Under the pieces are notes generated by a model. It ran no database searches. It saw only the letters and a list, made by a program, of their open reading frames with translations, and had not been told where the DNA came from. Source: a virus (Duplodnaviria; Heunggongvirae; Uroviricota; Caudoviricetes). From it: 64,000 nt of DNA. A program made the translations under genes and the position numbers. Shown piece by piece: positions 5,637 to 40,373 of this stretch. The DNA lies in IMG/VR virus record IMGVR_UViG_3300045988_162656; one strand, 5' to 3'. The first letter of the stretch is position 1. Each line of letters opens with the position of its first letter.

Positions 5637-6167
5637 TCACTCTCCTTTGATGCGAATGCCAGCGGCGCGGGAATCATTCCATCGCTTTACTTCTTCACGA
5701 ATTACGTCAATGCATTCTTTCGAATCCATTAGGTAATCTTCATCAAAAAGACGTTCCTGTTCGTTTTCTATCGCAACAATGATTGCTTCAACTAACTTTT
5801 GTGCCTGAGAATCACTTTCTAACTCTGCTATGCGCTTACTTCCATCCGAGATAACGCCCTCGTAATACTCACGCTGCTCGTTGAGTTTTGATTTTGCCAA
5901 CTCCAGTTGTTTTGTTAGTTCCGCAATACGGCAAACATCGTTGATACGCGTTTCCTCTAATGCGTTGATCTCATCCAGTAGTGCCAGCACGGTTTCTGGT
6001 CCGGCCAGAAATTTGAAGGCGTTGAGGGCATCAATATCAACACCGCTATCTTTAAGTTCCTGTTCACTTAACAAGTCATCATCAGCTGGCAACATTAACA
6101 GGCGTTCCATTGCTGGAATTGCACGTTCCGCCACCTCACGCAGTGCCTGGTAATTAATTTCGCTCAC
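5637..6167 (-). CDS. hypothetical coiled-coil protein
   Basis: 176 aa, ends GIRIKGE; ATGA overlap with upstream gene. Confidence 0.45.
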
Positions 6168-6706
6168 TGGTTGCCTCCTTTGCGAAGCTGGGCAGCAAAG
6201 TCAACTAACCACTCAGTCATTTCAACCTTCCCTACCAGGTCTGAACCAGGGTGCATACAGCAATCACTCTGCGCCGCTTTGAAATCCTTATACTCATATT
6301 CTTGGGCCACCAGATTTTTTGCAGCTTCTATAGCAGCATCCACCCCCTGCGCACGTACTTCAGCCAGAAAAGCATCGGTGGCTGGAGTCTCCGTTAATTC
6401 GCTAACCCAATTATCTCCGTGTTCCTCGGCACACATCGCATCGAATGCTCGCTCAGATTCTTTCAGGGCTGCATTCTCCGCCGCTAATGCGTCTCTCTGC
6501 GCCCGCAACTTCTCAATTTCGGCAGCCATGTAGTAACCAACCATAGCGAAGACGGCAAAAGAGTTGTCTGCCTCATCAGGCGACACTGAGGCCATTAGCA
6601 GACCATCGTAATAATCGTGACTCCCATTGGTGATCGCCACCGCATAGGAGTCGTGGTTCTCACGCTTGTGAATGAGAACTACGGGGTTTTCGATTTTGTT
6701 ACTCAT
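6164..6706 (-). CDS. hypothetical protein
   Basis: 180-aa ORF with the conserved aaaaacacatg initiation region. Confidence 0.45.
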   Translation of the reverse strand: MSNKIENPVVLIHKRENHDSYAVAITNGSHDYYDGLLMASVSPDEADNSFAVFAMVGYYMAAEIEKLRAQRDALAAENAALKESERAFDAMCAEEHGDNWVSELTETPATDAFLAEVRAQGVDAAIEAAKNLVAQEYEYKDFKAAQSDCCMHPGSDLVGKVEMTEWLVDFAAQLRKGGNQ

Positions 6707-6844
6707 GTGTTTTTCTCTTCTTTGCTGTTACATAAGCACTACCAAGTGCTGGTTTATTTTCACAAATAAGAAAATGTAGAAAACAATTTATTTAAGGCCA
6801 CAACTTATGGCCTTTATTTATTCATGCCGAAGGATTTGTAGCGT

Positions 6845-7225
6845 CTAATTGCCGTATAAAATGGGGTGAGGTGCTTGCCAGTAGGCTCCACCGGTCCATG
6901 TGAACCCCATGCGAATAAGAGTGTTTATTGCGGCTTTGGTAGACTCCGATTCGACACTGGCTTTACGAAACTCTTGAACCTCTTTCGCCAACCTGTATGT
7001 AATTGTGCAGGGGACGATTGCAGCCCAGCCTTTCTCATGACTGTTAATGACCATCTGGATGTGACCATCCAGAATAGGTTGATTAGACATGTTATTGAAA
7101 ATGTCTGCCTGTTTTTGAATGTGAAGAAAAAGCCTTGCCAGCTCCATTTGCTCACTACGAGACAAGGGATTATCAAGAGGGCTTTTTGCAAAAGCGGCTA
7201 TACGCTGTGCGTCAATGCCAAACAT
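6845..7225 (-). CDS. hypothetical protein
   Basis: 126-aa ORF; stop overlaps start of upstream gene region. Confidence 0.4.
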   Translation of the reverse strand: MFGIDAQRIAAFAKSPLDNPLSRSEQMELARLFLHIQKQADIFNNMSNQPILDGHIQMVINSHEKGWAAIVPCTITYRLAKEVQEFRKASVESESTKAAINTLIRMGFTWTGGAYWQAPHPILYGN

Positions 7226-7929
7226 CAGCGCACCTCACCATCTTTATGGCTGGAGTTAACTTCCGCCATTAAATGTCTGACGTAATCGACAAGAGAGCCA
7301 CCTGGTGGAATCTGGCATTCCTCAACTAACTGGAAGTAGATATCCGCAGCATTACGTGTATTGCTACCCGCGCATATTCTTTCTTCCCGAAGTGCATGAA
7401 GCTCGTTGATCAAACGGTCACACTCTCCGTTACGCTGATCCACAACAGCCTCAAGTTCTGCGACGCGTTCACCTGGCGTCTTACCTTCTTCGCGTTGGAT
7501 GGTAACGACGAAATCGCCAATTGCAGGGACGTTGTAATCCAGCTCAAGGTAGTTTTTGGCACCGCTGCGGACGAACTCACCCGCGAACATGGTGGCGAAC
7601 ATCTCAGAGGCCATTGTGCTGTTGAAAAGTGACTCCAGATCTAACGGAGTCCCGGCAGCCAGAGCCTCTTTTGCTGTATCCATTGTATCCATGAACCGAT
7701 CAAACTCATTAGCGCGCTTTTCCAGGTCTTTCCATTGCTCGCTCCAACGTTTGGCAATGAAGTCTATGAATGTTTTCGCGGATTCATCAAAATCCCCCTC
7801 AAACTTAACGATGCCTTTATCAATAATGATCTGGCCTACCGCATCCTCTGCATAACCTTTCAATGTAAACTTGAAAGGAAAATCAGAATGGCCTGTGACG
7901 TTAAAATGCTCTAACTGGAGGTTGTTCAT
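7225..7929 (-). CDS. hypothetical protein
   Basis: 234-aa ORF, first gene after a promoter-like palindrome at 7964-7984. Confidence 0.45.
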   Translation of the reverse strand: MNNLQLEHFNVTGHSDFPFKFTLKGYAEDAVGQIIIDKGIVKFEGDFDESAKTFIDFIAKRWSEQWKDLEKRANEFDRFMDTMDTAKEALAAGTPLDLESLFNSTMASEMFATMFAGEFVRSGAKNYLELDYNVPAIGDFVVTIQREEGKTPGERVAELEAVVDQRNGECDRLINELHALREERICAGSNTRNAADIYFQLVEECQIPPGGSLVDYVRHLMAEVNSSHKDGEVR

Positions 7930-7990
7930 ATGTTTTTCTCTTATCGTTTAGTTATTACATTCTTACACAAATTAAGTAAGTATTTACCTA

Positions 7991-9676
7991 TCATTTAACG
8001 CGTTTGAAAACGTATACGCTGACTGTGATCCCTGTGTCTTCAAACTCGTTGGTAAACGACTTCCCTCTGGCATAAACGTAATTATCCATCGTCATCCAGT
8101 CCAGTATTGGCGCAGTGCCCGGCAATACTGCTACAAGACGCCCGCCGACTTTCAGATGCCCCAGCGCAGCCAGCGTGTGCTCTCTATGACGACCAAGCGA
8201 GTACGGCGGGTTCATAACGATTTTGTCGAACTGATAACCTGCGTTGTCCTCAGACCACTTTATGAAGTCGCAGCAAATCGTGTTCGTATACCCTTTTCCA
8301 CGCAGGATATCAGCGAAGAGAGGTGCGATTTCTATGCAGGTAACATCTTCCAGATCGGCGTTAATATAGGCCAGAAGATCCCCACGTCCGGCTTGAGGCT
8401 CCAACAGCTTCTCACCAGGCTTCAATTCAGTGGCTCTGGCAACGTACTCAGCAATCAAGCGTGGGGTAGGGTAGAACTGGTGTGATTTTGTATCCGGTAT
8501 TAAACCGGTAGCCACAATCGTATTTAGCGTATGGCCGATCTCATACGGGAACTGCCAGTGCTTTTTCTCCTGCACGCCGCCAATGAAGCTCAGTGTGCGC
8601 TCAAGCTCTTCCACCTGCGACTTCTGGAGAGCTGAATCAGAGAAGTACCATACGCCTTTGTCTTTGCTCAATCGCCCGTCACGAAGCGCAGTGCGAACCG
8701 GCACGGAGATCGTCTTCTGGATTAACCCGAACTGCTTTGGTGCCCGTGTTTTTGGCGCAGTTCGGCATGGCGCGGGGATTGCAGCAGGCATACTGTAAGC
8801 CAGCACCTCATTCAACTTCCAGGCCACGTCAGGATGTATTTCAAAGTGAACGTTGCCGTTCTTGAACATCTTCACGCGCATCAGATTTCCATCGACGTTC
8901 ATCCAGTCACCGGTCTGGCAGTCGTTTGCCCGATACGCAGCTGATAGCACCTCAGCAGTGCGGTTGATGGTAATAAATTCTTTGTGCGCGAAGAAATGAA
9001 GCAAGACACGCAGATCGTCGATGTAGTCCTCTTTGCGATAGTTCACGCTAACGCTGTCACGCCAGAAATCAGAAATGCAGTCAGCGATTATCAGACGCTC
9101 GCTGAAACCGTTTGTCTTATTTGTCTTGTGCGCAGGACTCAGCGCCTTAAACAAGCCATACACGCGCTCAGAGAGATATTTGTGCCTGTCATTCAGCAAA
9201 TTAAGCATCGTTGGTATGACCGTTTCTGCTTTGAACTCCGGTACACCAACGAACTCTTTAACCTTCATCTGATAGCCGGTTCTGTCAGTTTTGATGACTT
9301 CCTGCTTGCCCTCGATAAATAGCTCACGCCACTCGTCGCGACGGGAAGCTGGCATGATCAGCAGAACGTTAGTCATATCCGTAACCTTCCTCCAGTACTC
9401 GGCCCAAATATTCTGTTTCACCCATTCCAGATCGACGTTATCCAGCCAGACTCGATTCAAACGTGAGCGATCTTCATCTGGTCGGTGGTTTAGTCGAAGC
9501 AGGCGATTAATCATGTTGTGGCGTTCATCGCCATAAACGAAGTCGTGTACCTGATACATGAAGGAGATCTCTTTCTCGCACTCGGCCACAATTTCGTGGA
9601 TGACGTTCATTTCCTGTCGATAGTCGATAGCAGTGTTTGAGCTGGCATCGCCCATGATGGAAAGGGCTGTATTCAT
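7991..9676 (-). CDS. DNA methyltransferase (amino-MTase, NPPY motif) with ~380-aa N-terminal domain of unknown function
   Basis: C-terminal FYPTP ... EPQAGRGDL ... NPPY motifs typical of N6-adenine/N4-cytosine MTases. Confidence 0.65.
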   Translation of the reverse strand: MNTALSIMGDASSNTAIDYRQEMNVIHEIVAECEKEISFMYQVHDFVYGDERHNMINRLLRLNHRPDEDRSRLNRVWLDNVDLEWVKQNIWAEYWRKVTDMTNVLLIMPASRRDEWRELFIEGKQEVIKTDRTGYQMKVKEFVGVPEFKAETVIPTMLNLLNDRHKYLSERVYGLFKALSPAHKTNKTNGFSERLIIADCISDFWRDSVSVNYRKEDYIDDLRVLLHFFAHKEFITINRTAEVLSAAYRANDCQTGDWMNVDGNLMRVKMFKNGNVHFEIHPDVAWKLNEVLAYSMPAAIPAPCRTAPKTRAPKQFGLIQKTISVPVRTALRDGRLSKDKGVWYFSDSALQKSQVEELERTLSFIGGVQEKKHWQFPYEIGHTLNTIVATGLIPDTKSHQFYPTPRLIAEYVARATELKPGEKLLEPQAGRGDLLAYINADLEDVTCIEIAPLFADILRGKGYTNTICCDFIKWSEDNAGYQFDKIVMNPPYSLGRHREHTLAALGHLKVGGRLVAVLPGTAPILDWMTMDNYVYARGKSFTNEFEDTGITVSVYVFKRVK

Positions 9677-33265: not shown

Positions 33266-33691
33266 TCAATCTTCTTGGTTAGGGAAAAACTGTTCAATAA
33301 CTCTGTCAACGGCTGTGTCTATATGGAGTAGATGCCACACAACCATATCTTTGCTTCCCATGCCTTGTGTGAATATCACGTCATACTTACGCCATGCGCA
33401 GTGGAACCAATATGCTGAGTCATCAATTGGTAAATCCTCTCCCGCCTCTTTGAAGTATTTCAGCAGCATTGCCTGCTCTGCCGTTGGCGTTGGACCTATT
33501 TCCTGAGCGTACATACGGATGAATCGCTGCCAGTCTGTCTCGTCGGGGGTTGGATCTGGTGGGGTCATTTCTGCGATAGCGTTTCGTAGCTGATGCGCCC
33601 AATCAGGTTCAGGAAAGCCTTTTGCTACTTCATCATCAATAACATCCAGAGCCACGTTTGCGGCATCGTAGAGTTTCTTAATTGCTGCCAT
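33266..33691 (-). CDS. hypothetical protein
   Basis: 141-aa ORF. Confidence 0.4.
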   Translation of the reverse strand: MAAIKKLYDAANVALDVIDDEVAKGFPEPDWAHQLRNAIAEMTPPDPTPDETDWQRFIRMYAQEIGPTPTAEQAMLLKYFKEAGEDLPIDDSAYWFHCAWRKYDVIFTQGMGSKDMVVWHLLHIDTAVDRVIEQFFPNQED

Positions 33692-34950: not shown

Positions 34951-35775
34951 TTAATATCCGGCGTATTCGTATTCTTCATTTAGACCGTATTCTTGTGGAG
35001 TGATACCAGGACAACATAACTCAAAGGCGAACTTGCGCCATTTGATTTTTTCTTCTGACGATTGTTTGTTATTCGCCGGTGCAATGTAGTCATATTCCCA
35101 TTTGCCGTTGCGAAGTAAAATGAATCCGCAGTTATTGCCGAAGTCTTCGTCTGCATAACGTATTACAAACTCAAGGTGCGGGAACTTTCTAGCCATCGCT
35201 TGATAAATTGGTTTTGGCATAGACCAGGCTGTTTCAAAGCGAATCACCAACTCACCACCAGTTGCGGCATGTCTTGCAAGACGTTTTTTATAGATTCGTT
35301 TTGCATATGCTCGAACGTGTGTATGGCGGAAATTATGGCCGTACTTAATACGTGTAGGGATACGTTTTACGGGCATTTCGATGTTGTAGGCATTCCATTT
35401 TGTTCCCCAATTAGCTCGCGACCAGTCAAACCATGAGTAATAGCCATAGCGACGATAATTCTCAAGCCGCATAAGAGCCTGCTCTTTGATTTTGCGAATT
35501 TCCTTGCGTGTCATTCCTGATTCACGCATAGCTAATTCGACCTGTTCTGGAGTCTTTAATTCACCGAACATGTGGTCGTAAACTGTTTCGCCCGCCATTG
35601 CAGAGGCCATGCGCCTGATATGATTGTTTTCTTCCATTTCTATACTTTTCGGACGTCTGCAAATGGTATTAAAGTCAATTAGACCTTTTTTGTTAGTTAT
35701 GGCACGTATGAAATCTAAGCGTTGTTTATTTGTACCACCTATGACTCGGATTTCGTTTGTAATGTGGTTGGGCAT
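34951..35775 (-). CDS. hypothetical protein
   Basis: 274-aa ORF; palindromic motif 16 nt upstream. Confidence 0.4.
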   Translation of the reverse strand: MPNHITNEIRVIGGTNKQRLDFIRAITNKKGLIDFNTICRRPKSIEMEENNHIRRMASAMAGETVYDHMFGELKTPEQVELAMRESGMTRKEIRKIKEQALMRLENYRRYGYYSWFDWSRANWGTKWNAYNIEMPVKRIPTRIKYGHNFRHTHVRAYAKRIYKKRLARHAATGGELVIRFETAWSMPKPIYQAMARKFPHLEFVIRYADEDFGNNCGFILLRNGKWEYDYIAPANNKQSSEEKIKWRKFAFELCCPGITPQEYGLNEEYEYAGY

Positions 35776-35870
35776 AATTAACTTAACCTTTTAACAAATT
35801 GTTTTCTTGTGTGTGATAATAACGAGAATAAAACGGCGTCCAACTGGACGCCTGATCTTCTTAATGAGAG

Positions 35871-36701
35871 TTATTTCACTGTAATGAAAGGAGTGTTAGC
35901 CCCTTGAGTCATGTACTGCGGTAACTGGCCATTCCATTTATTGATGGCTTCCAGTTCCATAACGTTCGGGTTTTGACGCAGAGCTTCACCGCGCAGACGA
36001 ATGGCGTCTGCTTCTGCTTGCGCACGAGCACGGATAGCATCAGCTTCACCATTAGCCTGTTCACGTAGCATATTCGCCTCAGCTTTACGTTGTTCAACTT
36101 CCTGCTGACGTTGCAGAGTACGCTGGTTAGCCGTTACTTTGGCGTTGATAGATTCAATGACGGTTTTTGGGTAATCAGGCTTTCCAACCCATGACAGGCT
36201 CAGTACCTCAATACCAACCGGAGACATCTCTTTCTGAATATCTTTCAGTGCGTTGTCCAGCAATTGCGCCTTACCACCGTCGATAAATGAGTCAGTGGTC
36301 ATACGGCTGGCCAAACGGTTTAGAGAGTCGGCAATTTTCTGACGCAGATCTGATTCGGTGATATCGTCTACGCCTTTGCGATAGGTCTGGAACACCGTCG
36401 TTACCTTGTCACGATTAACCAGATACGCAACGCCAATTTTGTGACCAATAGCAGTACCGTCACTCATCTGGAATGTGAACGGTTCGTCGTAGGTCTTCAT
36501 TTGTTTGAAGGTCGGGAATACGTAAAGTTCGGTGTTAAGACCTGTCCATTGGCGACCAACGCCAACCACTTCACCGATCCCTTTGTCTTCACCTAATTTG
36601 TTTACTTTGATGCCAACGTATCCAGGCTCCACGCGATCACAGCCAGTAAGACCCATTGTGCAAATAGCCGCCAGAGCAACTGCAAGTAAACCTTTCTTCA
36701 T
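35871..36701 (-). CDS. SPFH/band-7 domain lipoprotein
   Basis: lipobox LTGC after signal peptide; prohibitin-like core followed by Ala/Glu-rich coiled coil. Confidence 0.65.
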   Translation of the reverse strand: MKKGLLAVALAAICTMGLTGCDRVEPGYVGIKVNKLGEDKGIGEVVGVGRQWTGLNTELYVFPTFKQMKTYDEPFTFQMSDGTAIGHKIGVAYLVNRDKVTTVFQTYRKGVDDITESDLRQKIADSLNRLASRMTTDSFIDGGKAQLLDNALKDIQKEMSPVGIEVLSLSWVGKPDYPKTVIESINAKVTANQRTLQRQQEVEQRKAEANMLREQANGEADAIRARAQAEADAIRLRGEALRQNPNVMELEAINKWNGQLPQYMTQGANTPFITVK

Positions 36702-36704
36702 TAC

Positions 36705-36905
36705 TTATTTCCCCTTTGCTTTGATTAATGAGTTGATAAACTTACGACCAGCAATAAGACCGATTACAGGAGCACCAAAACCAACGATAACTCCAAACAT
36801 GACGGCTAAATCACTCTTGGTAGAAATCAGCGACGGAACCAGTAAACTGTAGATGAGAGCCACTGAAACGCCTGTGGCTACTGCCAATAGATAGATTTTG
36901 ATCAT
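36705..36905 (-). CDS. small membrane protein upstream of and coupled to the SPFH gene (NfeD-like partner candidate)
   Basis: 66 aa, two hydrophobic helices; 3-nt gap to SPFH gene. Confidence 0.4.
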   Translation of the reverse strand: MIKIYLLAVATGVSVALIYSLLVPSLISTKSDLAVMFGVIVGFGAPVIGLIAGRKFINSLIKAKGK

Positions 36906-36967
36906 GTGTTTTCCTATGTGGTTGTTATGCGAAAATAATAAGTAAGTACTTATATATTTTCAAGAGA

Positions 36968-36995
36968 TAAAAAAGGCGTCCTGTGGACGCCTTGT
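36968..36995 (-). terminator. rho-independent terminator after the RecA-like gene
   Basis: minus-strand hairpin aaggcgtcc-aca-ggacgcctt followed by tttttt. Confidence 0.7.
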
Positions 36996-36997
36996 GT

Positions 36998-38071
36998 TTA
37001 CTCTTCTACTGACTCGGTGGGGTTGTCTTTTGCTCTTCGGTCGTCGATTGCCTGCAAAGCCGCAATGATTTCAGCCAGTGGCTTCTCCCGATACATCTCG
37101 ACGATCTGCGATTTGGTGTATTTCTTGTCACCAATTTCAACTCGCCCGCTGGCGTTCTTTGGCAGGTATCCTTCTTCCAGCATGTACTCGACGAGCGATT
37201 CGATAACGTCGAGGCCACGAGTAGGATCGAAGTAGAATTTCCAGGTGCATTTGCCATACGGTGGTGCAACTTTGTTTTTGATGCATTCTGCGCCTACGTC
37301 CTGGCCGATCTTCTCTTTACCATCCTTCATCACCGATGCACCAAGACGGATACGTACAGAAGCGTAGAACTTCGGTGAATCTCCACCTGGAGACGTAGTA
37401 GGGTCGCCAAACATTACACCGATTTTTGTGCGAACCTGATTCAAGAAGATGATGCAGGCGTTGTATTTGCGTGCCCACAAAGCCAGAGTAGGGAAGTTCG
37501 CACTTGTCGCACGAGCCAGTGCCGTATTGTCGTTCATGTTTAGCTGATCTTTGTCTTTGGCAGTGCCTTCAGCCATCTTTTCGAACTTCTCGGCTTTGGA
37601 GTTCGGAACCATAGACGCAAGTGAGTCAGCCACGATACAGATAGGTGCTGATTCAGGAATAAGCTCTTCATCACGTACCAATTTAAGAATTGTGCCGATC
37701 AACTCTACAGAGTCTTCGAAGGTATCAGGCTGCTTGTATACCCACTGACCGTCATCCTCATCTGCATTCAAACCATTGGCTACAGCCAGGCCAACGTCAA
37801 AACTGTTCTCATGATCGAGGAATACCGCCAGACCATCTTGTTTCTGTGCGGAGATCATTGCTGCCGTTGCCAAAAAGGTTTTCCCCGCGCTTGGTGGCCC
37901 GAATACTTCTACGATACGACCACATGGGAAACCGCCATCGTAACGACCGGAAATCGCTTTGTTTAACGGAGGAAAGCCTGTGTCAATCCAATGAGTTACT
38001 TTCTGAATTTCGTCGTTGCTACCGATTTTCTTTTTCAGAGCAAGTGCCAGTGCGGATTTTCCTTTTGCCAT
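36998..38071 (-). CDS. RecA/UvsX-like recombinase
   Basis: Walker A GPPSAGKT and RecA-fold core; 357 aa. Confidence 0.8.
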   Translation of the reverse strand: MAKGKSALALALKKKIGSNDEIQKVTHWIDTGFPPLNKAISGRYDGGFPCGRIVEVFGPPSAGKTFLATAAMISAQKQDGLAVFLDHENSFDVGLAVANGLNADEDDGQWVYKQPDTFEDSVELIGTILKLVRDEELIPESAPICIVADSLASMVPNSKAEKFEKMAEGTAKDKDQLNMNDNTALARATSANFPTLALWARKYNACIIFLNQVRTKIGVMFGDPTTSPGGDSPKFYASVRIRLGASVMKDGKEKIGQDVGAECIKNKVAPPYGKCTWKFYFDPTRGLDVIESLVEYMLEEGYLPKNASGRVEIGDKKYTKSQIVEMYREKPLAEIIAALQAIDDRRAKDNPTESVEE

Positions 38072-38073
38072 GA

Positions 38074-38346
38074 TCAGGCTCCTTTTGTTTCGTTGATTCG
38101 TTTTAAAGCGGCGGATTCGTCGAATACAATCGCATCGTGGTTAAGGAGTCTGGATACACGAGCGAGGATTTTTACGACCTGCTCGCTGACTAATCCAAAC
38201 TCGCGATCTGTCGCTTTCATTCCGGCAGCGCCTAGAATTGACGGCAGTGCGATGACAGCGTACTCACCGTGATAAAAGACAATCTCTTTTGCCAGTTGGG
38301 TAGGGGTGGTTGTAGCGCCATTAATAATCGATTTAAGCATTAGCAA
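38074..38346 (-). CDS. hypothetical protein
   Basis: 90-aa ORF between FEN and recombinase. Confidence 0.35.
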   Translation of the reverse strand: MLMLKSIINGATTTPTQLAKEIVFYHGEYAVIALPSILGAAGMKATDREFGLVSEQVVKILARVSRLLNHDAIVFDESAALKRINETKGA

Positions 38347-39335
38347 TACCTTTCGAATGGAAGAACAAACACTTCAAGGTCTTCAAGGAACGAACGGAAA
38401 TTCAGCTCGTAGCACAGTTGCTCGAATGCTTTCACGTCACGATTGCCTTTGATTGTTTCGATTTCGGTAGGCGGAAACTTCGTCTCAATCAGGTTCATTA
38501 GCGTGATGTTTCTCTTGAACGCTTCGAGCATTCGACAGCCTGTTTTCTCGTTGAAGGCATTCTTCGCTAGTTTGTTGAAGGCGGTCTTATGGCGTCCTTT
38601 GTCAACCACGATTGAGCCGTCGTTGATGCCGCGTACCATCGTTGCGACACTTCCCCATTCATGCAGCAGCTCTTTCGCACCGCCAGCACCAATGCCACCA
38701 ACACCGCTAATGTTGTCCGATTTATCGCCTTGTAATGCTTTTGCTTCCAAAAATGCGCGAGGAGTAGCGAATCCTGTCAGCTCCGCAAATTGCTCAAAAT
38801 TAACCTGCTTGTTTTTGGCGTCTTCGCGCAGGCTTACCCAGCTTACGTTTTCGCGAACTAACTGAAGCCAGTCGCTATCGCCTGTTAACAGATAGATGTG
38901 TTCAACAATTGGCTGCGGTGCAATGCTGGCTACCAGCAGCCCGGCCAGATCATCCGCTTCTGCATCTTTTGCAATGAGTTGGGTAACTCCAAGCGCGGTC
39001 ATCATTTTGAGGATGTATGGCTTCTGGATAGCAAAGCCTTCCTTCATCTTTTTCATATCAGGATCGTCGTCGCGATTTGCTTTGTAGTCCGGGTAAAAGT
39101 CGCGACGCTTGTCACTAAATCCATCCCAAAGAATCATAGGTCGGGCATGGAGGATGGAGGCATAACGACGGACGTTCTTAACAAAGCCGAAAGCAGCCTG
39201 TACTTCCATTTCGCCGTTGTGCAATTTGTCAGATTGTTGGTGGTAATAACCCAGGCTATTGCCATCTACGAAGAGATAATTCACCGGTACATTCCTTCCA
39301 AAAAGTAAGGCGTCCGTAGACGCCTTACTGGTCAC
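38340..39335 (-). CDS. 5'-3' exonuclease / flap endonuclease (T4 RNase H / T5 D15-like)
   Basis: N-terminal acidic clusters and helix-hairpin-helix region typical of FEN family. Confidence 0.7.
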   Translation of the reverse strand: MTSKASTDALLFGRNVPVNYLFVDGNSLGYYHQQSDKLHNGEMEVQAAFGFVKNVRRYASILHARPMILWDGFSDKRRDFYPDYKANRDDDPDMKKMKEGFAIQKPYILKMMTALGVTQLIAKDAEADDLAGLLVASIAPQPIVEHIYLLTGDSDWLQLVRENVSWVSLREDAKNKQVNFEQFAELTGFATPRAFLEAKALQGDKSDNISGVGGIGAGGAKELLHEWGSVATMVRGINDGSIVVDKGRHKTAFNKLAKNAFNEKTGCRMLEAFKRNITLMNLIETKFPPTEIETIKGNRDVKAFEQLCYELNFRSFLEDLEVFVLPFERYC

Positions 39336-39344
39336 GTAATGGGA

Positions 39345-40373
39345 TTACAGAGAGTCCAGCTCTCTCAGTAGGTCATCCAGACCTTCATCTTCCGTCGCAG
39401 ATGCGGCTGCTACAGATGTCGCTGCGACTGCTTCAGACTCTTTGACTGATACTGCAACGGCAGCGGAACTTGCTTCTGGTTTAAATTCAGTTTCAACGGC
39501 ACGGAGGATTTCTTCATCAACCAGACTGGTTGGTTCAGAAGCTGGGGTGTGAGCGGTAGCTACAGCAGTCGCACCCTCCGTATGACCAGTGACAGAGCCA
39601 AATCCAGGCAGTGCCGCGGCCGATGTTTTCGCGGTAGAGGAAATTGCTGGTGCCGATGCAGAGGCAGTTGGTGCTGCGATGCCAATCAGACGACCCATAG
39701 TGCGAACTGTCGAGAGAAGACGAGTTTCATCAGCCTGATTTGCGTATGCGATCAGATCATGCTGGGTATTCCAGAATTTATCTTCGATATCGCCTTTGTA
39801 GACTTTACGCTTAGGCGAGACGTCATATTTGGTATCGCGACCAGAGCCAGTACGTTTAATCAGGAATGCGTAGCCTTCCTCTTTGCTCAGTGGATTGCCG
39901 ATATCATCAGCGATGTCTTCGGTGATTGCTTTGCAGATATCATCGAATACAGTAGACGGCAGCTCGATTAACTGGCATTTCTCAGCATCTGCGAAATCCT
40001 CACGAGCAGAAAGAATGCCGTTGACCAGATAGCGAGGAGTGGCACGCATTTGACCGATGCGTTCTTCCATTGCTTTGTTACCCTTGTGACGAGCGCGACC
40101 TTCCATCACCATTTCGCATAGCTGACAAGCGCGACCGTGAGTATGTTGCTCACAAATATAAGCGTTGGTTGCTTCTTTACCTTCCTCGTTCTGATACTTA
40201 ACGTAGTGCATACCGAAAGTCTGGAAGAACTTACCGTTTGGGTCGTCTTTATTCGGGAAGATGCGGATATAGTTGACGCCGTCTTTTAAGCGAGTCAGAT
40301 CAACGTTGTTACCACGTTTGGCGGCAATGTCTTCACGAGTTTTGTTAAGCAAATCAAGTAATGTCTTAGACAT
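39345..40373 (-). CDS. gp32-like single-stranded DNA-binding protein
   Basis: Cys/His cluster CEQHTHGRACQLC, Ala/Ser-rich linker and acidic C-terminal tail. Confidence 0.5.
   Translation of the reverse strand: MSKTLLDLLNKTREDIAAKRGNNVDLTRLKDGVNYIRIFPNKDDPNGKFFQTFGMHYVKYQNEEGKEATNAYICEQHTHGRACQLCEMVMEGRARHKGNKAMEERIGQMRATPRYLVNGILSAREDFADAEKCQLIELPSTVFDDICKAITEDIADDIGNPLSKEEGYAFLIKRTGSGRDTKYDVSPKRKVYKGDIEDKFWNTQHDLIAYANQADETRLLSTVRTMGRLIGIAAPTASASAPAISSTAKTSAAALPGFGSVTGHTEGATAVATAHTPASEPTSLVDEEILRAVETEFKPEASSAAVAVSVKESEAVAATSVAAASATEDEGLDDLLRELDSL

Follow-up and report, generated by a model that had tools for sequence, protein, structure and literature searches.

The 64,000-nucleotide stretch of the virus record IMGVR_UViG_3300045988_162656, referred to here as the window, carries on its minus strand two adjacent genes that encode a 66-residue membrane protein with two hydrophobic helices (the hairpin protein) and a 276-residue lipoprotein with an SPFH/Band-7 domain of the prohibitin-like type. 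Gene order and natural fusions, compared across phages, plasmids and bacterial chromosomes, identify the hairpin protein as a dedicated partner of the SPFH lipoprotein, and the two, to judge from their sequences, are a genuine functional pair with near-obligate linkage. The explanation we favor, with a probability of about one half, is that the pair forms a two-component scaffold of the inner membrane, in which a cage on the periplasmic face is joined to a hairpin membrane subunit and conditions the host membrane during lytic growth. A first-pass annotation of the window had described an SPFH lipoprotein with an upstream 66-residue two-helix protein, and both open reading frames (ORFs) are indeed present on the minus strand, the SPFH protein with a match to PF01145 and a lipobox.

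The ORFs found directly 5' of the SPFH gene in P88, phiP27, KpCHEMY26, CKB-S1, Pae_U2, ProddE, a Burkholderia phage and Paxi can be aligned without internal gaps, and the alignment has an invariant Pro24 and near-invariant Ser28 and Gly38. A hidden Markov model (HMM) derived from the alignment of upstream ORFs was run on all stop-to-stop frames of the SPFH strand at 255 loci. It produced 221 matches at E<1e-3 among 11,339 frames, and 207 of these are situated directly upstream of the SPFH gene. The remaining 14 are within about 1.2 kb of the SPFH gene or are fused to it. A directly adjacent partner is present in 80/80 close IMG/VR loci, in 67/80 diverse IMG/VR loci, where the SPFH proteins are about 46-54% identical to the reference, and in 51/79 GTDB species genomes. 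In-frame fusions of the hairpin to the SPFH protein were found in 17 of the 150 best representatives of 50% identity clusters. These proteins are 320-390 residues long, match the hairpin HMM at their N termini with E-values from 2e-13 to 7e-4, and are built in the order hairpin, short linker, signal-peptide-like helix, lipobox Cys and SPFH domain. Two further fusions are P0021, an enterobacterial protein that is 77% identical to the window protein, and P0188. Such fusions constitute Rosetta-stone evidence that the two products work together, and their order places the C terminus of the hairpin in the cytoplasm if the SPFH domain is exported. Another protein, P0278 (344 residues), has the reversed order, with the hairpin match at its C-terminal residues 288-333, after the SPFH domain. 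The arrangement in PVP-SE1 (gp115-gp116, locus L006 2142-2493) includes a 54-residue soluble ORF, gp116, between the hairpin and the SPFH gene.

The hairpin family became visible solely through synteny and the HMM of the upstream ORFs. The window hairpin protein has no Pfam (E<=0.01), NCBIfam or PADLOC match. A tblastn search with its 66 residues found 6 SSU5-like phages only, and a word-indexed protein search found close relatives only. Among 11 diverse partners there was neither PF01957 nor any convincing Pfam match, even at E<=10. In phiP27 (NC_003356) the hairpin ORF encodes 62 residues (L004:2316-2504), overlaps the lipoprotein gene L05 by ATGA and is absent from the RefSeq annotation. 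The 142 unique members of the family have a median length of 66 residues and the signature G-x3-P(99%)-x-L(83%)-I(73%)-S(97%)-A-x-S/D-T/D-x-A-V(75%)-x-x-G(98%). These percentages are partly circular because the HMM selected the sequences, whereas the positional linkage is not. The hydrophobic segments of the window protein span residues 4-23 and 34-53 approximately, and its basic tail reads GRKFINSLIKAKGK. The mean number of Lys and Arg residues over the 142 sequences is 1.7 in the N terminus, 0.4 in the loop and 3.5 in the C terminus. This distribution argues for a hairpin with both termini in the cytoplasm (N-in/C-in), so that the conserved motif would form a short, 10-residue periplasmic loop. 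The predicted layout is thus a cytoplasmic N terminus, a first transmembrane (TM) helix, the periplasmic loop P24-S-L-I-S28-T-K-S-D, a second TM helix with G38 and a basic cytoplasmic tail. It is the periplasmic loop, rather than the helices, that is the most conserved part of the protein.

The Pfam match of the SPFH lipoprotein covers residues 23-209 and scores 106.2 bits against a cut-off of 23.6. The N terminus that precedes it consists of a basic n-region, a hydrophobic core and the lipobox L-T-G-C with Cys21, followed by Asp22 at position +2 (MKK-h-region-LTGC-D). Cys21 is invariant in 14 diverse phage homologs and at least 90% conserved in 111 sequences, and Asp occupies position +2 in 98 of the 103 enterobacterial homologs that have a lipobox. 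According to the +2 rule, Asp at this position causes retention in the inner membrane in Enterobacterales (Lol avoidance); sorting rules differ between taxa. At the level of sequence the window protein has the features of an inner-membrane lipoprotein, namely a lipobox of the form [LVI][ASTVI][GAS]C with Asp at +2. Cys21 is the predicted acylation site, and from Asp22 we infer that the lipoprotein is retained in the inner membrane, which is also where its integral-membrane partner would need it to be. The SPFH domain is predicted to be periplasmic, given the lipobox with its invariant Cys and a fusion architecture that fits export.

A monomer model calculated with AlphaFold2 from the 111-sequence alignment (pLDDT 84, pTM 0.64) has an SPFH α/β core at about residues 20-176 (strands 20-95, helices 97-159, strand 164-176), which leads into a 65-residue coiled-coil helix (179-243) and then a short helix (245-255); the tail is modelled with low confidence. 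The C terminus of the protein contains a conserved KWNGxLP...PF motif. A Foldseek search of the Protein Data Bank (PDB) resulted in 64 matches at E<=0.001; every one of the 50 best matches listed is an SPFH protein. The list is led by HflC (7vhq_G, 8e-14), PHB2, PHB1/2, erlin1/2 and HflK, with E-values of about 1e-13, and followed by stomatin, flotillin, vault and QmcA. When a profile of the 14 phage homologs is compared with PDB sequences, the prohibitin chain 9urz_B is first (1.5e-7) and PHB2 is second (3.9e-7), and QmcA (8z5g), HflK and HflC rank after the prohibitin chains; the single SPFH sequence has HflK as its sole match (0.007). The protein is best filed with the prohibitin-like bacterial group SPFH4, which has been described as uncharacterized, probably periplasm-facing and devoid of an NfeD operon partner (PMC2636767, Hinderhofer et al. 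2009). This assignment is provisional because the margins of prohibitin over QmcA and HflK are small. Orthology with HflK or HflC was rejected, as the protein scores 30.2 bits with TIGR01932 hflC (cut-off 134.4) and 18.7 bits with TIGR01933 hflK (cut-off 159.4). Neither protein of the pair matches any PADLOC defense-system model at E<=0.1, and a known defense system was rejected on that basis.

The two ORFs are in the same frame, 3 nucleotides (nt) apart, and their junction reads ...AAA GGG AAA TAA GTA ATG AAG.... A Shine-Dalgarno sequence for the SPFH gene, GGGGA within AAGGGGA, is found in the last codons of the hairpin gene, an arrangement that indicates translational coupling of the SPFH gene to the hairpin gene. 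Neither is a chance ORF, because both are conserved in SSU5, Cyrano, P88, phiP27 and hundreds of other elements and their dN/dS ratios are low (0.03 for the SPFH gene, 0.13-0.24 for the hairpin gene). The window region is 99.9% identical to 'Escherichia phage CMS-2020a' and has the phage-plasmids PhiR41_1, Cyrano (pLF82) and Salmonella phage SSU5 among its relatives, so that the window is classified, from its sequence, as an SSU5-like phage-plasmid of E. coli. In the relatives the hairpin gene is annotated as 'membrane protein' and its neighbor as 'lipoprotein / stomatin-like / SPFH', and RepA is a few kb from the pair. The neighborhood in the window is as the first-pass annotation described it, with recombinase, exonuclease and SSB genes upstream and genes of unassigned function downstream (Table 1).

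Table 1. Position and supporting evidence of the hairpin-SPFH cassette, its neighbors and the repeated 18-nt motif in the window
Feature	Position	Strand	Basis
66-residue two-helix (hairpin) membrane protein gene	36705..36905	minus	ORF; phrog_1130 at E=1.1e-24
276-residue SPFH/Band-7 (prohibitin-like) lipoprotein gene	35871..36701	minus	PF01145 E=2.6e-30; phrog_200 E=3e-108
Predicted signal peptide and lipobox, SPFH residues 1-21, MKKGLLAVALAAICTMGLTGC	36639..36701	minus	sequence; invariant Cys
Putative sigma-70-type cassette promoter, TTGAAA-17 nt-TATTAT	36935..36963	minus	consensus at 10/12 positions, pattern scan
Terminator-like hairpin upstream of the cassette, AAGGCGTCC-ACA-GGACGCCTT + TTTTAT	36973..36993	minus	pattern scan
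Terminator-like hairpin downstream of the cassette, GGCGTCC-AGTT-GGACGCC + GTTTTATT	35835..35852	minus	19 nt past SPFH stop; pattern scan
RecA-like recombinase, upstream of the pair	36998..38071		
5'-3' exonuclease, upstream of the pair	38340..39335		
gp32-like SSB, upstream of the pair	39345..40373		
18-nt motif sites	7977, 12941, 14121, 19994, 24703/24711, 32894, 33229, 36935, 40455/40463, 46046, 48698, 53863, 60658		

Homology with Cyrano, SSU5 and a second CMS-2020a record begins at about 35782-35792 (query position 283-293). The downstream terminator-like hairpin marks the end of the cassette and the start of a stretch that is not common to Cyrano and SSU5, and the upstream one is predicted to end the recA-like unit and to insulate the cassette. 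Both of these bracketing hairpins have the same stem, GGCGTCC...GGACGCC, and may be module boundaries used in recombination. The gene directly downstream of the cassette (34951-35775, minus strand) encodes a 274-residue protein with a DUF1281_C / Api92-like ferredoxin-like domain (E=1.1e-15; phrog_12644); being located in the stretch absent from Cyrano and SSU5, it is part of the variable region. Between the window and Cyrano (35871-36905 vs 6087-7121) the SPFH proteins are 100% identical with a dS of 0.03, whereas the hairpin genes are 72% identical with a dS of 0.64. The near identity of the one gene and the divergence of the adjoining one point to a recombination breakpoint at or near the gene boundary, that is, to a mosaic junction. 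The hairpin generally diverges much faster than the SPFH protein.

The RecA-like gene of Cyrano, CYRAN_55 (7215-9554), is 2,340 nt long, compared to 1,074 nt in the window and 1,077 nt in SSU5, which suggests a large insertion in the Cyrano copy, possibly an intein or a homing element. A 9.7 kb Logan contig encodes a 303-residue chimera, P0018, in which SPFH residues 1 to about 227 (100% identical) are followed by the C-terminal part of a DUF7238 protein that is encoded at 33266..33691 in the window. This implies that some relative has lost about 2.4 kb, including the three intervening genes.

The cassette promoter, identified as a consensus match, and the terminator-like hairpin upstream of it are conserved in Cyrano and SSU5, the promoter despite diverged flanks. 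An 18-nt repeated motif (TAAGTACTTACTTATTAT) covers the spacer and the -10 region of this promoter. The element, TAAGTRYTTACYTATCAT, has 15 copies in the window at <=3 mismatches, compared to 0.31 expected, and these are mostly intergenic and upstream of ORFs. It is often preceded by GTAAG and contains a -10-like TATCAT; two sets of copies form divergent pairs. The promoter of the gp32-like SSB has one copy, in the same position relative to the -10 hexamer as in the cassette promoter. The motif looks like the phage-plasmid's own promoter class, or like scattered repressor operators such as the P1 C1 sites. Since the motif is common to the cassette and SSB promoters, the cassette would be wired into this promoter/operator class of the element.

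Expression data come from the Cyrano ortholog pair, CYRAN_56/57, rather than from the window element. RNA sequencing of the LF82 lysogen in lysogeny broth (LB) gave values of 2.32, 2.32 / 4.30, 3.02 for the pair on the scale of log2(fpkm+5), where fpkm stands for fragments per kilobase per million; these values correspond to about 0 and 3-15 fpkm (PMC9928086 S1 Table). Six hours after the bacteria entered macrophages they were 7.61, 7.70 / 7.25, 7.42, or about 150-200 fpkm (PMC9928086 S1 Table). On the same scale the flanking recA gene changed from 3.56, 3.12 in LB to 4.06, 4.05 in macrophages and CYRAN_58 from 2.69, 2.32 to 4.20, 3.94 (PMC9928086). The pair is therefore an independent transcription unit, as its values differ from those of the flanking genes. 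Two of the hallmarks of a moron, its own promoter and flanking terminators, are present as consensus matches, but the third, expression in the uninduced lysogen, is not seen for the Cyrano orthologs. These were less than 5-fold over background in LB and are not among the 13 Cyrano morons (PMC9928086).

The SPFH protein was found by tblastn in 413 phage records. Its gene is present in 634 PLSDB plasmids and in 760 of 5,426 complete E. coli genomes (14%), at 418 chromosomal and 437 plasmid places. A search of 1.84 billion representatives of 50%-identity clusters detected 902 proteins at E<=1e-10 and 195 at E<=1e-30. Temperate carriers include phiP27 and Stx2a phages (lambdoid/Stx), the P2-like P88, SSU5-like and P1-like elements, and Pseudomonas and Burkholderia phages. 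The strictly virulent carriers are N4-like Schitoviridae, the rV5-like PVP-SE1, the FelixO1-like phiEa104, the LUZ24-like TL, the T7-like ProddE, phiCbK, jumbo phages and Lak phages. In the early operon of the P2-like P88, a 76-77% identical SPFH gene is preceded by the gene of a 67-residue membrane protein. The pair adjoins the DNA polymerase gene in CKB-S1, ProddE and phiEa104 and the dUTPase gene in KpCHEMY26, and it is near an exonuclease in PVP-SE1 and near int/xis in phiP27. In P1-like phage-plasmids it is located between tRNA genes (tRNA-Thr, tRNA-Met), upstream of ban, which encodes a DnaB-like helicase. The pair had been described as an unusual cargo for a replication module. That view is unsupported, because proximity to early and DNA-metabolism genes is the rule in many unrelated phages; the genes in the window are common ones, already annotated, and are not a special cargo of its replication module.

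The slot that the pair occupies in P1-like elements has alternative fillings. Classical P1 (L257 3181-3886) holds tciA-tciB-tciC there, and the pair is found in RCS47, 813R1, Ro157c2YLVW (L258 3176-4220) and 'Punavirus P1' MH422554. The possibility that classical P1 carries the pair as plp/upl was set aside, since the P1 record shows tciABC at this place and only some P1-like elements have the pair. The first-pass annotation had also considered that the genes might be universal core genes of their phage family, and for the SSU5 group this was rejected. The gp32-like SSB is present in 826 PLSDB plasmids, compared to 634 with the SPFH gene, and for Klebsiella the numbers are 347 and 56, so that most Klebsiella members are without the pair. 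The SSU5-like Klebsiella pneumoniae plasmid NZ_CP073786.1 (L255 9282-11167), for example, has an unrelated hypothetical gene of 258 codons on the opposite strand after the recombinase. In Yersinia, 63 plasmid records (Y. pestis, 98-101 kb, the size of pMT1) carry an SPFH gene whose protein is 93.8% identical, and the SSB is likewise present in 63; the equal counts make the cassette part of that plague-plasmid backbone.

The pair is also found on bacterial chromosomes. In Dyella jiangningensis (L200 3779-4813) it is flanked by genes for a BlaR1-type M56 peptidase, hemerythrins and ribonucleotide reductase, and the same flanks are present in about 25 Dyella/Rhodanobacteraceae species. In Leptospira (L224 3778-4825) it adjoins the succinate dehydrogenase genes (sdhCAB), with an upstream flank conserved in 7 species. 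These syntenic loci led to the rejection of a phage-only gene, and the conserved flanks indicate that the module is also a vertically inherited cellular locus. Its presence beside housekeeping genes favors a generic membrane function over a phage-specific device.

The following mechanism is proposed. Cys21 would be acylated, and Asp at +2 would then keep the lipoprotein in the outer leaflet of the inner membrane. Through its coiled coil the lipoprotein would oligomerize into a ring or cage of about two dozen subunits, as HflK/C, prohibitin, erlin and QmcA do, and we infer the formation of this cage from these solved relatives. The cage would dome over a patch of the inner membrane from the periplasmic side. 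The hairpin would be its integral-membrane subunit, supplying the transmembrane helices that the lipid-anchored SPFH protein lacks, and would either anchor and nucleate the cage or sit inside it. In phages the pair would act as an early-lytic accessory that is co-expressed with DNA-metabolism genes, in the window from its own promoter of the common promoter/operator class. The cage would probably enclose part of the inner membrane and thereby change how membrane proteins are quality-controlled (access of the FtsH type, as with HflK/C and prohibitin), and it might also, or instead, keep the membrane intact while the phage loads its own proteins. HflK/C cages hold the periplasmic domains of FtsH, and prohibitins and erlins have been linked to membrane-protein quality control (PMC12624060). 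A direct action on DNA replication is not part of the proposal, because the SPFH domain would be outside the cytoplasm; the exported domain also makes unlikely the earlier suggestion of a membrane microdomain that organizes replication. The anatomy of the locus is well supported, the partnership and the topology are likewise supported by the data, and the physiological role is our best guess.

Several observations weigh against this scaffold. About 13% of the loci, for instance those of TL, phiEa104 and phiCbK, have no recognizable hairpin, so that the partner is not absolutely required, and the pair as a whole is dispensable for the SSU5 group, being missing from most of its Klebsiella members. 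Outside Enterobacterales the +2 residue is mostly Ser, and inner-membrane retention is therefore not demonstrable family-wide from sequence. The weak similarity to HflK and HflC (19 and 30 bits) means that the FtsH link is not transferable by orthology, and there is one SPFH gene here and no paralog pair of the K/C type. The rise of CYRAN_56/57 in macrophages by about 10-fold or more, which recA does not share, is compatible with regulation by stress or by the host no less than with early-lytic control. Other lytic genes of Cyrano, including those of the major capsid protein and the tail, are also up at 6 h in macrophages (PMC9928086), and the rise may accordingly be a partial derepression. 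According to a 2026 paper, it is still unclear why phages carry SPFH genes (PMC13239085). A search of the literature found no functional or mechanistic study of the phage SPFH pair, and that on phiCbK and N4 lysis contained nothing relevant. In TL, phiEa104 and phiCbK, small ORFs of other kinds are found upstream of the SPFH gene, encoding a 72-residue protein with one TM helix, a soluble 73-residue protein and a 116-residue protein with three TM helices, respectively.

Both products are predicted to be on the periplasmic side of the inner membrane, the site of passage for incoming DNA, and this location would also suit superinfection exclusion. Other phages would then be stopped by the cage and hairpin at DNA entry or at a step in the periplasm, whether early in infection or, under some conditions, in the lysogen, much as with T4 Imm/Sp, P1 Sim and HK97 gp15. 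The occurrence of the pair among early genes of virulent and temperate phages alike, its behavior as an interchangeable accessory cassette (it swaps with tciABC in P1-like elements and is missing from most Klebsiella SSU5-like plasmids) and the category of phrog_1130, 'moron, auxiliary metabolic gene and host takeover', agree with such a role. The hairpin also evolves much faster than the SPFH protein and has a separate recombination history, as is expected in an arms race. Exclusion is nevertheless doubtful. The vertically inherited pair of Dyella and Leptospira argues for a cell-autonomous membrane role, PADLOC models do not match, the near silence of the Cyrano orthologs in LB lysogens leaves no constitutive protection of the lysogen, and the literature searched reports no exclusion phenotype. 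A role in lysogenic conversion or virulence, in which the lipoprotein is a moron that aids the host in animals, through envelope stress tolerance or as a vesicle-released TLR2 agonist, and does not serve the lytic cycle, is quite unlikely. The cassette's own promoter and two bracketing terminators would fit it, as would the change of the Cyrano orthologs from about 0-15 to about 150-200 fpkm at 6 h in macrophages while recA and CYRAN_58 stay at background, and the presence of the pair in Stx phages and on Y. pestis plasmids of pMT1 size. A candidate lead is PM0222, an HflK/C-like SPFH protein of a Pasteurella multocida prophage and a possible member of this subfamily, which is reported as a vesicle-borne virulence factor activating TLR1/2 (PMC9872710). 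However, strictly virulent phages of environmental bacteria, as well as free-living Dyella and Leptospira, carry the pair just as often, the LF82 study did not count it as a moron (less than 5-fold over background in LB), and a partial derepression, in which other lytic genes of Cyrano rise too, could account for the macrophage data.

The first-pass annotation had compared the pair with SPFH-NfeD operons, and the corresponding explanation would be that the small protein is a pared-down NfeD with a regulatory or processing role toward the SPFH protein, and that the pair organizes a microdomain for replication or partition of the phage-plasmid. The resemblance holds insofar as a small membrane gene is upstream of, and co-transcribed with, an SPFH gene, similar to operons of the yqiJ-yqiK type, and the partnership is conserved. 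The pair is inside a replication/recombination cluster, and both the structural and the sequence matches include QmcA from the QmcA-YbbJ complex. It fails in that the partner is not an NfeD protein: the search of 11 diverse partners gave no PF01957 at E<=10, and an OB-fold cannot fit into 66 residues of which about 40 are in membrane helices. An SPFH domain exported by its lipobox cannot contact cytoplasmic replication or partition proteins. NfeD partners were found for SPFH1, 2 and 5 only, and not for the prohibitin-like SPFH4, in a survey of prokaryotic operons (PMC2636767), and there are strictly lytic phages, and chromosomes devoid of plasmid replication genes, that have the pair as well. 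This explanation, already contradicted by the sequences on its defining domain, is highly improbable. Very little likelihood is likewise given to a function in lysis timing, in which the hairpin would resemble a class-II holin or a pinholin and would be restrained or timed by the SPFH cage. Its size, N-in/C-in topology and charged C terminus do fit the generic description of a holin, and SPFH cages sequester membrane proteins in other systems (PMC12624060). The inspected loci have no endolysin or spanin beside the pair, though, and its neighbors are early or DNA-metabolism genes; the PHROG category is other than lysis, the periplasmic loop and not the helices is most conserved, and the chromosomal orthologs are in housekeeping contexts.

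A broader version of the scaffold proposal is that the pair is an ancient two-component cage of the periplasmic face, composed of a lipid-anchored bacterial prohibitin and a minimal TM subunit, which hundreds of unrelated phages have captured so as to take control of proteostasis in the host membrane early in infection, for instance by sequestering or protecting FtsH or phage membrane proteins that have just been inserted. We regard this as unlikely. If true, it would be a general mechanism of host takeover rather than a niche accessory.

SPFH cages, such as those of HflK/C, prohibitin, erlin, stomatin and flotillin, are under intense structural study. To our knowledge, the bacterial prohibitin-like group has no characterized member. 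Three points appear to be new here: the hairpin partner proteins form a defined family, this family is near-obligately linked, and in places fused, to a clade of lipoprotein prohibitin-like SPFH proteins, and the pair has cellular orthologs. Medically relevant carriers of the pair are phages of the SSU5, P1 and Stx types and Y. pestis plasmids of pMT1 size, and it is found in 14% of complete E. coli genomes. As a small system of two proteins, amenable to genetics in E. coli, it lends itself to asking what a periplasm-facing SPFH cage does and what phages gain from it.

Both window proteins are clear members of PHROGs, phrog_200 ('lipoprotein') and phrog_1130 ('membrane protein'), and hence of families that are already catalogued, with annotated members in SSU5, Cyrano, P88 and PVP-SE1; the catalogue gives no function and does not join the two families, whose linkage, fusions and cellular orthologs were established in the present analysis. 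The SPFH-NfeD systems (QmcA-YbbJ, YqiK-YqiJ, FloT-NfeD2) are similar in that an SPFH protein is co-transcribed with a conserved small membrane partner, and QmcA (8z5g) is matched. Here, however, the 66-residue partner has no NfeD domain or OB-fold and has a signature of its own, P-x-L-I-S-A-x-S/D followed by G, and the SPFH domain is predicted to be periplasmic, whereas it is cytoplasmic in the QmcA/YqiK/flotillin type. The HflK/HflC-FtsH complex has its SPFH domains on the periplasmic side, as predicted here, together with a coiled coil; HflC is the top Foldseek match, and the gating of access of membrane proteins to a protease is a plausible analogy (PMC12624060). The differences are that the window protein does not reach the NCBIfam equivalog cut-offs, that it is a lipoprotein whereas HflK and HflC are type-II membrane proteins, and that a single SPFH gene is accompanied by a hairpin without an SPFH domain instead of two SPFH paralogs with N-terminal TM helices.

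The prohibitins (SPFH4; PHB1/PHB2) differ in that the window protein is anchored by a lipid, at the lipobox Cys, and not by a TM helix, is encoded by a single gene and not by a PHB1/PHB2 pair, and has a dedicated hairpin partner with two TM helices, which is not described for SPFH4 in PMC2636767; its identity to PHB is about 15-18%. They nevertheless provide the best profile match in the PDB and share with the window protein a length of about 270-300 residues and the succession of anchor, SPFH domain, long coiled coil and C-terminal cap motif. Like the prohibitins, the window protein is predicted to face away from the cytoplasm or matrix, and some of the homologs already bear the database name 'prohibitin family protein'.

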